A DNA stretch of 64,000 nucleotides from a virus (taxonomy: Duplodnaviria > Caudoviricetes), in IMG/VR virus record IMGVR_UViG_3300044856_000241, positions 1 through 64,000 of that record. One strand, given 5' to 3'. Under the pieces are notes generated by a model. The model was not told the origin of the DNA. It worked only from the letters and a program-made list of their open reading frames with translations, and made no database searches. Both the position numbers and the translations under genes were made by a program. Positions 58,649 to 61,595 of the stretch are shown here, in pieces. The first letter of the stretch is position 1. Each line of letters opens with the position of its first letter.

Positions 58649-58717
58649 AAGACACACTTCCGGTATCCCATCCGGTTAATTTATTATGTCGAAATAATAA
58701 TTTGCTGTATGTGTCTT
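58649..58717 (-). ncRNA. ACAGCAA hairpin unit 1
   Basis: AAGACACA-T-ACAGCAA...TGTGTCTT. Confidence 0.75.
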
Positions 58718-58725
58718 TCTTATCC

Positions 58726-58779
58726 TAGATACATTTTTCTTTCGATGCTTGGAAATTAATAATTGCTGTGTTGTATCTA
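58726..58779 (-). ncRNA. ACAGCAA hairpin unit 2
   Basis: TAGATACA-AC-ACAGCAA...TGTATCTA. Confidence 0.75.
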
Positions 58780-58793
58780 TATCTATATATTCT

Positions 58794-60314
58794 CTACGCC
58801 ACCAGATCTTTTACCGCATTCTCAACTGGTGCGTATCTTTCAGAATTTAATTGCTCCAGTAAACACTCAAATGGATCTGTACTGTTACTCAATACCATTT
58901 TCACAATTGCAGGACTGAAACCACTTACAAGTGCTACACCAGCCTCATTCTCTTTTACCGGAATTGTGCCAGTACGACTCATGATATTCCAGAATACTAA
59001 TCTTGGAAGTTTATATCCATGAGCTTCATATCTATCAGCCAGTTCTTCGAATAATCTCTTATCAGTACGTCCAGAAGTCATACGATCAAATTCTAAATCT
59101 GAAAGTACCAGTACATTCTGTGGCATATCATCCTGAGTCATCTCATTCCTGATCGCTGTCTGGAGAATCAGATCAAATGTTGCTTCAATATTTGTATTTG
59201 TCATCTCACAATGATTCAGCGCAATCTCAATTTTCTCACGCAATGAATCGGCATTGCTAAAATCAACAATCTGCGGGTGACTACTAAACGTAATATATGT
59301 ATCTTTGAACTGTCCAGAACTTCTCTCTGCAAAGTAAATGGCTAATGCATTTGCCACACTAAGAGCTGTGACATTCGTACCACCAATTCTTGAAGTCATA
59401 CTTCCTGATCCATCAGCTACACAAATTGTATTTCCTGTTCCGCTAACGTAATCAGGCAATGCTTTCCAAAGCTGTTCAAGTGTCGGATCATCAACAGGTG
59501 ACAAGTTCCATCTACTTGAGCCATACTTATGTACAATATCATGCGGGAATAAAACACCGGCATTGATTTTTGTTTCGCCTTTTTCTAACTTATTCAAGTA
59601 TTCTCTACGTCTTTCCTCATCATTTCGTAAGAAAGCATTGTTGTAAATTAGATTTGCTCTTGACGGAACAGCTGCATAATCAATTTTATCCCACTGTTTT
59701 GCAGACATTTTAACTTCAACCACATTCAGGTACGCACGGAGCTCGGATAACATTTTTCTATATTGTCTGTCTGTGAAAATGATGTTATCCATGATGATAT
59801 GTGCCAATCGTTTTGTCTCTTTTGAAGAGGTGTTAGCACTTGGCATCCATTTAGCAAGAAGCGAAATCGGTTTACTCTGCTTCATATTTACACCATCTTC
59901 TAAGAGCTGATGTACTACTACTTCACACACATCATCTTTTAAATCAGTGTCCAATAAACACCATAAATCATCCCAACGTCCATATTCAGGAACCAGTTTA
60001 ATTACTTCCTTGGCAATATCCTGATGATTCTCTGCAAGATATTTTATACAAGTTCTAAACAGTCTTCTCTCGCCAATTCCCTCTCTACAATCACGGCAAT
60101 AAAATAACCATTTCATTGCCAAAATTTTGTCCTCATAGAACGCTTTTACGAACTTTTCAACGATTTTTTCTTCGCTCATGTTCCTCATAGATGATACTGA
60201 AAAGTTTAAATCAAGAAGTTCTTTACCTGATGTTCTATAACCAAGAGCACCATTCTCAGTAACTGAATAATTGAAGTCATCATTCAGTGTTTCTTTTAAA
60301 TTTTTCATAAACAT
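58794..60314 (-). CDS. DUF2828-like protein: helical TROVE/Ro60-like N-terminus plus C-terminal vWA domain
   Basis: TENGA, RDCREGIGERRLF, YGRWDDL, LAKWMPS; MIDAS motif VADGSGSM...TNIEATF...LSDLEFD; LVFWN, LVSGFS. Confidence 0.82.
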   Translation of the reverse strand: MFMKNLKETLNDDFNYSVTENGALGYRTSGKELLDLNFSVSSMRNMSEEKIVEKFVKAFYEDKILAMKWLFYCRDCREGIGERRLFRTCIKYLAENHQDIAKEVIKLVPEYGRWDDLWCLLDTDLKDDVCEVVVHQLLEDGVNMKQSKPISLLAKWMPSANTSSKETKRLAHIIMDNIIFTDRQYRKMLSELRAYLNVVEVKMSAKQWDKIDYAAVPSRANLIYNNAFLRNDEERRREYLNKLEKGETKINAGVLFPHDIVHKYGSSRWNLSPVDDPTLEQLWKALPDYVSGTGNTICVADGSGSMTSRIGGTNVTALSVANALAIYFAERSSGQFKDTYITFSSHPQIVDFSNADSLREKIEIALNHCEMTNTNIEATFDLILQTAIRNEMTQDDMPQNVLVLSDLEFDRMTSGRTDKRLFEELADRYEAHGYKLPRLVFWNIMSRTGTIPVKENEAGVALVSGFSPAIVKMVLSNSTDPFECLLEQLNSERYAPVENAVKDLVA

Positions 60315-60361
60315 AATTCTTTTTCTCCTTTTGAATCAAAATTAGTAGTAACTTTGATTCC

Positions 60362-60418
60362 TAGACGGCATGGAAAATAGATTAACAGTCTATACCAAAA
60401 AATTGCTGTAGCCGTCTA
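60362..60418 (-). ncRNA. ACAGCAA hairpin unit 3 with Asn (GTT) anticodon stem-loop
   Basis: TAGACGGC-T-ACAGCAA...ATAGA CTGTTAA TCTAT...GCCGTCTA. Confidence 0.8.
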
Positions 60419-60431
60419 AAGAATCATTTAC

Positions 60432-60488
60432 AAGATAGCTATATGTTAATATTCTCCGCTTGAATTAAATATTTGCTGTAACTATCTT
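60432..60488 (-). ncRNA. ACAGCAA hairpin unit 4
   Basis: AAGATAGT-T-ACAGCAA...GCTATCTT. Confidence 0.75.
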
Positions 60489-60491
60489 CAA

Positions 60492-60607
60492 CGACAGGAA
60501 CAGGACTCGAACCTGTATCAATGCCTGGACGTGGAATAAATATCGCTGTTAATGTCTATTACAAGACATATTTTTTTCACCGTTTTAACCAATTAAACTA
60601 TCCCGTC
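60492..60607 (-). ncRNA. tRNA-like RNA A; anticodon arm replaced by a motif hairpin (ACAGCGA variant)
   Basis: Acceptor GACGGGA/TCCTGTC, D arm GTTT..AAAC, T arm ACAGG TTCGAGT CCTGT; insert ATGTCT-loop-AGACAT-TA-ACAGCGA. Confidence 0.8.
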
Positions 60608-60684
60608 ATGTGAGTATTCTCATACGGCAATACAAGAATACTCAGCTTGCAACTTATTAACTTACTTCCCACAAAGAAAGGAGC

Positions 60685-60743
60685 TAGACGGTTTTGGTTA
60701 GTAAATTAAAAGTCTTCTCCAATAAGTTTGCTGTATCCGCCTA
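60685..60743 (-). ncRNA. ACAGCAA hairpin unit 5 with Lys (TTT)-type anticodon loop
   Basis: TAGGCGG-AT-ACAGCAA...AGA CTTTTAA TTT...CCGTCTA. Confidence 0.75.
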
Positions 60744-60747
60744 TATA

Positions 60748-60814
60748 CAAGACACTTAGCCACTTGGCATTTGATTTGCAATCAAATTGTTCAATGTTGC
60801 TGTTTTGTGTCTTA
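60748..60814 (-). ncRNA. ACAGCAA hairpin unit 6 with Cys (GCA) anticodon stem-loop
   Basis: TAAGACAC-AAA-ACAGCAA...TTTGA TTGCAAA TCAAA...GTGTCTTG. Confidence 0.8.
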
Positions 60815-60815
60815 A

Positions 60816-60934
60816 TGGAGATGGAGAGATTCGAACTCCCGACAAATGGTTACCCTTAATTAATATTTGCTGTTGATGTCTTATACAAAACACACATAAT
60901 ATTTCCATCGCTCTACCAACTGAGCTACATCTCC
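60816..60934 (-). ncRNA. tRNA-like RNA B; anticodon loop replaced by an ACAGCAA hairpin
   Basis: Acceptor GGAGATG/CATCTCC, D arm GCTC AGTTGGTA GAGC, stem ATGG/CCAT, T arm GGGAG TTCGAAT CTCTC; insert TGTTTT-GTAT-AAGACA-TCA-ACAGCAA. Confidence 0.85.
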
Positions 60935-61012
60935 GTATGAATTCCTTCCTATTATAATAAGGAAGAAACTCATGTTATTTGTAACAATACGTTTTCCACA
61001 GAAAGGAGATCC

Positions 61013-61072
61013 TAGACGGTATCTGGGTTGCAAATTAAAAGTTGTTCCAAAGAAAATTGCTGTTACCGCCTA
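61013..61072 (-). ncRNA. ACAGCAA hairpin unit 7 with Lys (TTT)-type anticodon loop (paralog of unit 5)
   Basis: TAGGCGGTA-ACAGCAA...CAA CTTTTAA TTTG...TACCGTCTA. Confidence 0.75.
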
Positions 61073-61085
61073 TTTTGTTGTGGAA

Positions 61086-61256
61086 TCACCGGATCTGGGT
61101 TCGAACCAGAATCTGCATCGTCCATTAAATTAAAATTTGCTGTAAGCGGATGACTATGTATCAAAAAGAAAAGAGAGGATTTTATGAAAGTATATGTTAT
61201 TTTTTCTATCCGCTTTTTAATTGTGATGCTGTTTTACCAATTGAAACTATCCAGTG
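61086..61256 (-). ncRNA. tRNA-like RNA C; long ACAGCAA hairpin in place of the anticodon loop
   Basis: Acceptor CACTGGA/TCCGGTG, D arm GTTT..AAAC, anticodon stem GCATC/GATGC, T arm TCTGG TTCGAAC CCAGA; insert AAGCGGAT...ATCCGCTT-ACAGCAA. Confidence 0.85.
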
Positions 61257-61260
61257 TAAA

Positions 61261-61383
61261 TTGTAGGGGCTGGATTCGAACCAGCGAAACCATAGGTGTC
61301 AGATTTAGAGTCTGATTTGCTGTTAGTGATTATACCTAATCACATTTTTCTTCTGATGCGTTTAGCCACTTCGCTACCCTACA
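61261..61383 (-). tRNA. tRNA-Tyr-like body with CUA (amber) anticodon and a 41-nt ACAGCAA insertion (tRNA-like RNA D)
   Basis: TGTAGGG/CCCTACA, Tyr-type D arm GCGAAGTGGCTAAACGC, TCAGA CTCTAAA TCTGA, variable arm ACC TAT GGT, T arm GCTGG TTCGAAT CCAGC; insert bounded by an ATCAGA direct repeat. Confidence 0.8.
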
Positions 61384-61391
61384 ATGTAATC

Positions 61392-61447
61392 GAGACACTT
61401 TATTATCATCCGTATTATAATATTTTAACATTTGCTGTTAGTGTCTC
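61392..61447 (-). ncRNA. ACAGCAA hairpin unit 8
   Basis: GAGACACT-A-ACAGCAA...AGTGTCTC. Confidence 0.78.
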
Positions 61448-61455
61448 ATCTTTAC

Positions 61456-61521
61456 TAGATTCCATATTTATGTATTCTCTATTAATGAATTAATTTCTTG
61501 AATATTTGCTGTTGGAATCTA
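61456..61521 (-). ncRNA. ACAGCAA hairpin unit 9
   Basis: TAGATTCCA-ACAGCAA...TGGAATCTA. Confidence 0.78.
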
Positions 61522-61527
61522 AATGTT

Positions 61528-61595
61528 CAAGACGATATCATATTTGTTTGCCAGTATTATCTTTAATATTTTGTAAAATTGCTGTGATCGTCTTA
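61528..61595 (-). ncRNA. ACAGCAA hairpin unit 10
   Basis: TAAGACGAT-C-ACAGCAA...ATCGTCTTG. Confidence 0.78.

Follow-up and report, generated by a model that had tools for sequence, protein, structure and literature searches.

A phage array of stem and ACAGCAA-motif RNAs linked to a DUF2828 protein with a predicted Ro60 fold

Background

Why should a single phage gene be surrounded by 14 copies of one small structured RNA motif? The question is raised by a 64,000-nucleotide stretch of viral DNA (IMG/VR record IMGVR_UViG_3300044856_000241, positions 1 to 64,000; hereafter "the window"), which makes up the initial 64 kb of a virus record of 203,624 bp, a ~204-kb gut phage rated complete by CheckV. 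On its minus strand lies a gene for a 506-amino-acid DUF2828 protein (58794-60314), with 12 RNA units upstream and 2 downstream in an array that spans 2.9 kb. The units share a helix followed by the sequence ACAGCAA. An earlier note on this DNA had proposed that the DUF2828 protein is a Ro-like scaffold loaded with a repertoire of modular "handle + payload" RNAs.

Ro60 and its Y RNAs form a classic, still poorly understood RNA-surveillance particle, and Ro60 is a human autoantigen. Our analysis makes it probable that the phage locus encodes a Ro60-type ribonucleoprotein (RNP) of a second, sequence-divergent kind, and that the 14 RNAs are its Y-RNA-like partners. Three elements of this reading are established here, namely the protein fold (as modeled), the RNA structure with its covariation, and a tight two-way genomic linkage between the two.

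The ACAGCAA array and its conserved handle

The motif counts, coordinates and 12 + 2 placement of units given in the earlier note proved right, the counts referring to the minus strand. On that strand, ACAGCAA occurs 13 times between positions 58702 and 61585, and a single ACAGCGA is present at 60543-60549. All 14 units are on the strand of the DUF2828 gene and within 1.3 kb of it, as are the units in 38 of 39 related loci. When both strands of the whole window are counted, ACAGCAA is present in 29 copies versus 9.9 ± 3.1 in shuffled sequences; outside the array locus, it occurs at background level over the rest of the 203,624-bp genome.

Each motif copy directly follows one strand of a 7-bp helix, and two unit topologies are observed. 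In 10 of the 14 units, termed stand-alone, the strand 5' of the motif pairs with a segment 29-44 nt downstream to form a stem of 7-10 bp. The order of elements is therefore 5' strand, 0-3 nt, ACAGCAA, a U-rich tract, a payload of 29-44 nt, 3' strand and, usually, G. Because the partner strand lies downstream, after the payload, the helix closes the unit. Stand-alone units are 58-73 nt in length, with a 7-bp stem followed by NN-ACAGCAA. In the remaining four units, which have tRNA bodies, the partner strand lies upstream, so that the helix is a local hairpin, and the block of hairpin and ACAGCAA is set in the anticodon arm. The two forms are circular permutations of one object. The earlier note had described every unit as a helix followed by ACAGCAA and an A/U-rich tract; motif and helix are indeed found throughout, but a local hairpin preceding the motif is seen only in the four tRNA-bodied units, whereas the helix of the other 10 is a closing stem.

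A sequence logo of 420 distinct contexts reads AAGRCRC-NN-ACAGCAA-UUUUA, the U-rich tract following the motif, and minimum free energy (MFE) folds leave the motif unpaired. A covariance model, R1, was built from 53 non-redundant stand-alone units. Over the window and 44 loci it matches 135 units, of which the window contributes 10. Across the alignment of these matches, 99.9% of helix cells are paired, and the 7-bp helix occurs in 132 distinct sequences. All seven of its base pairs covary, and cells in which both partners have changed number 233, compared with 58 ± 10 in shuffles. When the partner strand is slid by 1-3 columns, helix pairing falls to 32-53%. The alignment was fitted to R1, which favors structure, but neither the slid controls nor the variety of pair types (AU, GC, UA and CG at most positions) is explained in this way. 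Covariation is present inside the window and is far stronger across loci. Thus, the proposal that the helices differ between units yet remain paired is upheld as covariation, but not as free variation, since the helix is semi-conserved as AAGRCRC/GYGYCUU, followed by G.

The same data bear on the idea that each unit is a copy of a small mobile element of DNA that targets tRNA genes, comparable to miniature inverted-repeat transposable elements (MITEs). Many copies reside at one locus, and a 5-nt direct repeat, UCAGA, flanks unit 4. However, the copies have in common just the 7 fixed letters and a helix that covaries, and this covariation shows that selection acts on RNA pairing, as opposed to propagation of the units by copying. 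Moreover, all copies are on one strand at one genomic locus, and no transposase is present. A mobile element is thus a highly improbable origin for the array.

Apart from tRNA and noise, searches of Rfam with E values up to 10 retrieved only one match, to YrlA, which is at chance level and spans two adjacent tRNA bodies. The handle RNA matches no Rfam family, as had been predicted.

The DUF2828 protein is predicted to adopt the Ro60 fold

Pfam assigns the 506-amino-acid protein to DUF2828 and DUF7788, the latter a vWA domain (E values of 6e-37 and 3e-44, respectively), and PHROG 850, "RNA-binding protein," matches with an E value of 1e-141. An AlphaFold model based on 62 homologs of 41-74% identity has a predicted local distance difference test (pLDDT) value of 92.5 and a predicted template modeling (pTM) score of 0.91. 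This model aligns with Ro60 structures 1yvp_A and 2i91_A at a Z score of 19.9 and a root-mean-square deviation of 3.8 Å over 417-420 of the 506 residues. More broadly, Z scores are 17.5-19.9 over 415-423 residues with Xenopus and human Ro60, 15-16 with the Ro60 of Thermus phage phiLo, and 13.7 with Rsr of Deinococcus radiodurans. The top 10 structure entries are all Ro60 or Rsr, and lower matches involve the vWA domain alone (Z of 11 or less), which leaves Ro60 as the sole full-length structural match of the model. The MIDAS residues (DxSxS...T...D), corresponding to D301, S303, S305, T374 and D406, are invariant in the 62 homologs.

According to this model, the DUF2828 protein is a Ro60-fold ring that consists of a HEAT-repeat, TROVE-like ring and a vWA domain with an intact MIDAS. 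The Ro60-likeness suggested from sequence in the earlier note therefore gains the backing of structure prediction. A first AlphaFold model, derived from 17 close homologs (pLDDT of 69, Foldseek TM score of ~0.45), is superseded by the 62-sequence model. The DUF2828 family comprises 7,122 clusters at 50% identity, is present in phages, giant viruses and bacteria, and is represented in 705 sequenced phage isolates. A literature search found no paper treating DUF2828 function.

Motif and gene are linked in both directions

Starting from the protein, we assembled 80 viral loci with homologs 57-98% identical to the window protein. ACAGCAA is found on the gene strand within 2 kb upstream of DUF2828 in 79 of these loci, and 77 have at least three copies. 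Motif density upstream on the gene strand is 2.69 per kb, versus 0.04 on the other strand and 0.14 elsewhere. In the 39 related loci analyzed among L002-L080, every R1 match is on the gene strand, and in 28 of the 39 a unit ends no more than 150 nt before the start codon; in most loci, the distance is 33-48 nt.

A motif-first scan of viral contigs for three spaced copies of ACAGCAA yielded 119 loci, mostly coding repeats, of which the first 100 were scored with R1. Matches were obtained in exactly 7 of the 100, all of which have a DUF2828 homolog (24-59% identity), and none was obtained in the other 93. The linkage to DUF2828 that had been predicted for other genomes is therefore seen whichever partner the search begins from. 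Indeed, DUF2828 is the only constant gene beside the units over a range of 24-98% protein identity and in very different phage types. The next most common neighbor, a gene for an SPFH protein, occurs in 40 of the 80 loci.

Units lie beside the gene in cultured phages, including Listeria phage LMSP-25, Mycobacterium phage LeBron and the FelixO1-type phage heid. The DUF2828 homolog of LeBron is annotated as "Ro-like RNA binding protein." The middle one of three LeBron units encloses a YrlA-like, tRNA-like core (RF02553) inside a handle whose motif is here GCAGCAA; the core scores 39.8 bits, with an E value of 1.6e-7 in a 381-nt search and of 1e-5 in another search. This arrangement directly connects the handle described here with the known architecture of Y RNAs.

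Two observations concern individual loci. On a contig labeled as a giant-virus metagenome-assembled genome (L088:11477-11596), two units lie beside a 24%-identical DUF2828 gene on the opposite strand, which is the only divergent arrangement seen. In LMSP-25 (L206:1461-2012), a match to ROOL RNA (88.5 bits versus a cut-off of 99.1; E value of 7e-17) lies ~1 kb upstream of the DUF2828 gene and the handle RNAs.

Relationship to Y RNAs, Class I RNAs and gp130

YrlA RNAs (Rfam RF02553) and their motif GNCGAAN0-1G were defined by Chen et al. 2014 (PMC4201824). Complexes of Rsr with YrlA, and of phiLo Ro60 with Yrl RNAs, are experimentally established (PMC4201824, PMC12135203), and the phiLo protein binds two phage Y-like RNAs, Yrl1 and Yrl2, as well as PNPase (PMC12135203; PDB 9KOP, 9L5Y). 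As in these Ro60/Rsr and Y RNA systems (YrlA, YrlB, Yrn1 and phiLo), the phage locus combines a predicted Ro60-fold ring bearing a vWA domain and MIDAS with small RNAs that adjoin the gene on the same strand. Like Y RNAs, the units combine a stem, whose 5' strand bears a conserved motif, with a variable, tRNA-mimicking module. In four units, the tRNA-like domain is predicted to be joined to the protein-binding stem at the anticodon position, as in YrlA, although with permuted topology.

The differences are equally clear. Unlike Ro60 and Rsr, the phage DUF2828 protein is not recognizable as TROVE by sequence. The phage motif is ACAGCAA rather than GNCGAAN0-1G or GGUCCGA, a departure from the Y RNA consensus that had been pointed out before. 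The best RF02553 match in the window scores 20.8 bits against a cut-off of 69 and spans two neighboring tRNA bodies. Whereas Y RNA loci have one or two RNAs each, up to 14 RNAs are found per DUF2828 locus, and many of their payloads are bare anticodon hairpins. Finally, the tRNA-bodied units are permuted oppositely to YrlA, with open acceptor ends and with the handle, through which they presumably bind protein, at the anticodon.

A stem plus ACAGCAA is a design known from the literature, where it is that of the orphan Class I RNAs of Dictyostelium (PMC5054030, PMC7919456). Found in dictyostelid social amoebae, these RNAs (Aspegren 2004; Kjellin et al. 2021, PMC7919456) have been described by the search pattern GTTGRCCTTACAGCAA...GTCAACTG, that is, GTTGRC-CTTACAGCAA...GTCAAC-TG (PMC5054030). 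They resemble the phage units in consisting of a stem plus CUUACAGCAA, in their length of ~60 nt, and in having a short stem that joins the ends and an unpaired motif ending in ACAGCAA directly after the 5' strand. Their remainder is variable, their genes are clustered, and a conserved (U)G comes after the 3' strand. Unlike the phage units, Class I RNAs are eukaryotic, have a Dictyostelium upstream sequence element (DUSE) promoter, are reported to be unique to Dictyostelia, and have the RNA recognition motif (RRM) protein Rnp1A as a direct binder (PMC7919456). Their stem is of 6 bp with an invariant first G, and their motif is the 11-nt CCUUACAGCAA, of which the phage motif has only the last 7 letters. 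No link of Class I RNAs to a DUF2828 protein has been reported.

A functional precedent comes from Bas63 (Escherichia phage JohannRWettstein, a Felixounavirus), whose Ro60-like protein gp130 counters the defense system Ppl (PhageMaP, bioRxiv 10.1101/2024.10.10.617714). The authors of that study guessed that some of the "tRNAs" near gp130 are Y RNAs (bioRxiv 10.1101/2024.10.10.617714). In both cases, a Ro60-like protein is encoded directly upstream of a tRNA array. FelixO1-type homologs are ~35% identical to the window protein, and the tRNA array of one of the phages concerned, heid, includes three ACAGCAA units. No RNA partner of gp130 was identified in that study, however, and Bas63 is likened to the window locus through its genus, Felixounavirus, rather than through its own sequence. 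The earlier note is to be amended on two points: the stem + ACAGCAA design had already been published, and a Ro60-like gp130 had been reported.

These precedents also permit another explanation of the linkage, in which the tie between RNA and gene reflects co-expression and not binding. The stem and ACAGCAA could be read by a different factor, such as an RNase that punctuates the transcript of the tRNA cluster, the phage CCA-adding enzyme or a host RRM protein, or they could form a cis-regulatory leader of the DUF2828 mRNA. The spacing of 33-48 nt between a unit and the start codon in most loci and the embedding of units in tRNA clusters are consistent with such roles, and, with a conserved G after it, the 7-bp stem is reminiscent of an acceptor stem and its discriminator base. 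In addition, Rnp1A is the only direct binder shown for a Class I RNA (PMC7919456), and gp130 works without phage RNAs (bioRxiv 10.1101/2024.10.10.617714). However, the sole constant gene over 24-98% identity is DUF2828, the next neighbor being present in only 40 of 80 loci. A leader does not explain units that lie downstream of the gene or are scattered among tRNAs, and one copy would suffice for this purpose, not 14. We consider it unlikely that another factor or a leader function accounts for the units.

A proposed particle and its tRNA-like payloads

If the locus encodes a Ro60/Y-RNA-like particle, the handle would be the docking site on the DUF2828 protein: a 7-bp helix whose 5' strand runs into single-stranded NN-ACAGCAA and a U-rich tract. 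It would take the role of the conserved stem and 5'-strand motif (GGUCCGA, GNCGAA) by which Ro60 and Rsr hold Y RNAs. The variable part would display a tRNA look-alike, either a bare anticodon hairpin (Asn, Cys or Lys) or a whole tRNA body whose anticodon arm bears, or is replaced by, the handle. Units of the latter type could be regarded as a circular permutation of YrlA, in which an L-shaped body carries the protein-binding stem at the anticodon and has open acceptor ends. The particle may offer tRNA-like parts to proteins that read tRNA; in a phage, the targets would most plausibly be host enzymes of tRNA-directed defense or of tRNA repair or decay. Binding, the RNA ends and the cellular target are the parts of this scheme that we infer.

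The payloads support a tRNA theme. Anticodon hairpins in the window correspond to Asn GUU (60360-60420), Cys GCA (60747-60815) and Lys UUU (60683-60745), with a degenerate Lys hairpin in 61011-61074. Bodies with good acceptor, D and T arms are present at 61261-61383, 61086-61256, 60816-60934 and 60492-60607, and the remaining payloads are plain hairpins; all three kinds of distal part listed in the earlier note are therefore represented. Across loci, 73 of 132 stand-alone payloads have a 5-bp stem and a 7-nt loop with U33 and R37, versus 22 in shuffles, and Lys UUU is the most common anticodon among them. ARAGORN called no tRNAs in the window. In all four tRNA-bodied units the handle is in, or in place of, the anticodon arm, and a canonical arm with a 7-nt loop is kept only in unit 4.

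Elsewhere, handle-bearing tRNA bodies occur in near-identical pairs that differ in the anticodon alone: L044:4480-4590 and L049:4507-4617 (GUU versus UCU), and L028:3934-4049 and L033:3933-4048 (UGU versus UGA). Judged from these sequences, such pairs suggest rapid anticodon switching on a fixed body.

The position of the handle raises the strongest rival to the RNP reading, namely that phage tRNA genes carry it as a new protein-dependent intron or as a processing signal. The insert would be cut from the anticodon arm and the halves rejoined by a host or phage RNA ligase, with DUF2828 as a chaperone or a mere neighbor. One conserved class has its insert between positions 28 and 29 ("CG|UA..."). 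Deletion of the insert restores perfect arms and canonical loops for Asn, Lys, Thr and Arg (for example, CG|GGU-CUGUUAA-ACCCG at L063:4587-4706), and base pair 28-42 covaries across the insert (G-C versus U-A). Likewise, unit 4 is restored to a complete Tyr-type tRNA with a CUA anticodon. An RNA ligase (PHROG 968) is encoded together with a kinase/phosphatase (kinase/HD) protein near 15 related loci. "Enigmatic" tRNA introns were also reported in Lak megaphages (Devoto et al. 2019, PMC6784885), where phage tRNA genes have short inserts of unexplained mechanism; the published description of those introns, which is the only basis of the comparison, gives neither a motif nor a partner protein.

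Most units do not fit this scheme, however. There are no tRNA exons in 10 of the 14 window units, nor in the 135 units across loci, and no anticodon loop can be restored in units 5, 7 and 10 or in whole conserved families elsewhere. The inserts are 35-90 nt in length and lie at positions 26/27 or 28/29 or replace the loop. They differ from bulge-helix-bulge (BHB) and group I tRNA introns, the latter with a core of at least 200 nt, in that no BHB, group I core or Rfam intron match was found. Searches of the phage genome for RtcB, an Rnl2-type ligase and a tRNA-splicing endonuclease (PF01974) found none. Moreover, where a phage has a split Asn unit, a plain tRNA-Asn unrelated to it is encoded as well, and the split bodies make up a separate conserved lineage. 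A rule-based excision test was set aside: 74 of 131 units pass, but because 55 pass when the frame is slid by one nucleotide, the count is not evidence, and visual inspection is convincing only for the 32 units of the "CG|..." class, with the insert at 28/29. An intron seems an improbable explanation of the array, although it may possibly apply to a subset of the tRNA-bodied units.

Several results weigh against a Ro60/Y-RNA-like particle. Pfam gives no match to TROVE, and vWA_Ro60 scores 16.4 bits against a cut-off of 27.7. Similarly, a profile of 17 homologs matched no PDB chain at E values up to 1, solved Ro60 included. The known Ro-binding motif GNCGAAN0-1G is absent from the units. A perfect anticodon arm results when the handle is taken out of ~30 tRNA-bodied units of related loci, a finding equally compatible with an intron. 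A second helix, formed by the U-rich tract after ACAGCAA and an A-rich tract beside the 3' stem strand so that the motif becomes a bulge between coaxial helices, was dropped; contiguous pairs average 3.09, compared with 3.02 ± 0.10 with permuted partners. Finally, gp130 of Bas63, a FelixO1-type homolog, countered Ppl defense against T7 when expressed alone from a plasmid (bioRxiv 10.1101/2024.10.10.617714). Because it is active alone, this homolog can act without the phage's own handle RNAs. Nevertheless, the predicted fold, the linkage and the lack of an Rfam match support the proposal of a Ro-like scaffold loaded with handle-and-payload RNAs, in which binding of the RNAs would follow the Ro60 precedent. 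Of the refuting outcomes named in the earlier note, none that lies within reach of computation was observed.

The units of the array

All units described below are on the minus strand and are given in 5' to 3' order along it. Units 1, 2 and 3 are stand-alone. Unit 1 (61527-61596) has the closing stem AAGACGAU/AUCGUCUU, ACAGCAA at 61579-61585, a plain payload and an R1 score of 51.8 bits; in its MFE fold, the stem is retained and the motif stays single-stranded (z of -2.3). Unit 2 (61454-61523; R1 score of 45.5 bits, fold z of -3.8) has the stem UAGAUUCCA/UGGAAUCUA and one AGAGAAUACAUAAAU box in its payload, and unit 3 (61390-61449; 50.1 bits, z of -3.7) has the stem GAGACACU/AGUGUCUC.

Unit 4 (61261-61383) reads as a class II, Tyr-like tRNA body with the intact anticodon arm UCAGA-CUCUAAA-UCUGA, whose CUA anticodon would read amber codons. 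The handle hairpin GUGAUUA/UAAUCAC and ACAGCAA lie between the D arm and the anticodon arm, flanked by the 5-nt repeat UCAGA, and MFE folding gives a cloverleaf with one additional hairpin (z of -3.0). Despite this amber-reading anticodon, long open reading frames (ORFs) of the window are open under the standard code, and the L002 homolog of unit 4 has GUA (Tyr). Unit 5 (61086-61256) likewise reads as a tRNA body, with acceptor, D arm, GCAUC/GAUGC anticodon stem and T arm. A long hairpin, GCGGAU...AUCCGC, followed by UU-ACAGCAA takes the place of its anticodon loop, and a manual parse found no simple excision that gives back a 7-nt loop.

The stand-alone unit 6 (61011-61074; 40.5 bits) has the stem UAGGCGGUA/UACCGUCUA and the degenerate Lys-like loop CUUUUAAU. 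Unit 7 (60816-60934) is a tRNA body of a Phe-like family that matches Rfam tRNA at 53.8 bits (E value of 7e-10) with a 55-nt insert; these 55 nt, a weak hairpin and CA-ACAGCAA, replace the anticodon loop. In the alignment of this family, the acceptor, T arm and handle hairpin covary. The strand before the unit 7 motif (UGUAUAAGACAU, 60867-60890) can also form 12 bp with the 3' stem strand of unit 8 (60747-60760), 111 nt downstream, which is better than unit 7's own weak local hairpin. This may be an alternative pairing of neighbors or a chance product of their common consensus.

Unit 8 (60747-60815; 35.9 bits) is stand-alone, with the stem AAGACAC/GUGUCUU and the Cys GCA hairpin UUUGA-UUGCAAA-UCAAA, as is unit 9 (60683-60745; 39.3 bits), with the stem UAGGCGG/CCGUCUA and the Lys UUU loop CUUUUAA. 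A direct repeat, CUCCUUUCU(U)UGUGG(G)AA, is found directly after the 3' stem strand of the Lys-type units 6 and 9 (60990-61010 and 60662-60682). Unit 10 (60492-60607) is a tRNA body that scores 21.6 bits against Rfam tRNA with a 54-nt insert; the hairpin AUGUCU/AGACAU and UA-ACAGCGA, which holds the variant motif, replace its anticodon loop.

The last two units upstream of the gene are stand-alone. Unit 11 (60430-60490; 43.5 bits, z of -3.0) has the stem AAGAUAGUU/AGCUAUCUU and a plain hairpin payload, and unit 12 (60360-60420; 41.2 bits) has the stem UAGACGGC/GCCGUCUA and the Asn GUU payload AUAGA-CUGUUAA-UCUAU. Unit 12 ends 45 nt before the start codon, the position of a near-constant leader unit in related loci. 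Two further stand-alone units follow the gene. Unit 13 (58724-58781; 34.8 bits), with the stem UAGAUACA/UGUAUCUA, begins 13 nt after the stop codon, and unit 14 (58647-58719; 43.6 bits, z of -3.1) has the stem AAGACACAU/GUGUGUCUU and a two-hairpin payload.

Genomic neighborhood

Between ~52 and 64 kb, every gene is on the minus strand; these encode a DnaB-like helicase, an AAA_24 ATPase, a DHH phosphoesterase and small ORFs. Next to the array, just beyond the window (G000:C1:64327-64701, minus strand), is the gene for a CCA-adding enzyme (PolyA_pol, E value of 4e-39, 438-aa frame), and the plain tRNAs of the genome lie at 66.6-67.1 kb. In related loci, a cysteine desulfurase is encoded in 22 cases in addition to the RNA ligase and kinase/HD genes noted above, and a tRNA splicing ligase is annotated in the neighborhood in Listeria phage LMSP-25. 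To judge by these gene assignments, the neighborhood is tRNA and RNA-repair themed. A 407-aa ORF near the array has no similarity to the RNA ligase of the related loci.

Encoded CCA was considered as a discriminator between plain and handle-bearing tRNAs and dropped. It is present in 0 of 8 plain tRNAs of the phage genome, and because these too lack it, the test is uninformative here.

A scan of the array for sigma-70 promoters and terminators was not above shuffles, and comparison of the array DNA with phage isolates gave as its sole similarity a 74-nt match inside the DUF2828 gene. The 15-mer AGAGAATAYATARAT occurs 17 times in the window with up to two mismatches (2.5 expected), 15 times on the minus strand and twice on the plus strand at 4.7-5.5 kb. 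Its five exact copies, all on the minus strand, are at 61595-61609, 61466-61480, 58781-58795, 45129-45143 and 41435-41449. Three of these fall in the array: one precedes unit 1, one is within unit 2 and one is located at the stop codon of the DUF2828 gene, a placement that is inconsistent relative to the units. The 15-mer may be a phage promoter or a box resembling a ribosome-binding site.

Conclusions

A broader proposal, which we regard as speculative and rather doubtful in its entirety, is that DUF2828 proteins and RNAs with a stem and ACAGCAA form one ancient, very widespread RNP class that includes the Class I RNAs of Dictyostelium. Phages might have grafted the handle onto anticodon hairpins and tRNA bodies as tRNA decoys or adaptors, which could disarm tRNA-directed defenses or feed broken tRNAs to repair, and a subset of units might in addition be new protein-guided tRNA introns at position 28/29.

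Because units are present in cultured phages of the FelixO1 type, the Listeria P100 type and mycobacteriophage cluster L, direct bench testing is possible. If the locus encodes a Ro60-type RNP, it would represent a second, much larger branch of the Ro60/Y RNA system, and a protein family known only as DUF2828 would gain its own family of RNA partners, one that is absent from Rfam. The Class I RNAs of Dictyostelium, which have been considered exclusive to those amoebae, would likewise be given a protein context. The finding would account for the "broken" tRNA genes that tRNA finders overlook in large phages, and would explain what accompanies gp130 of Bas63, a protein already shown to defeat a bacterial defense.

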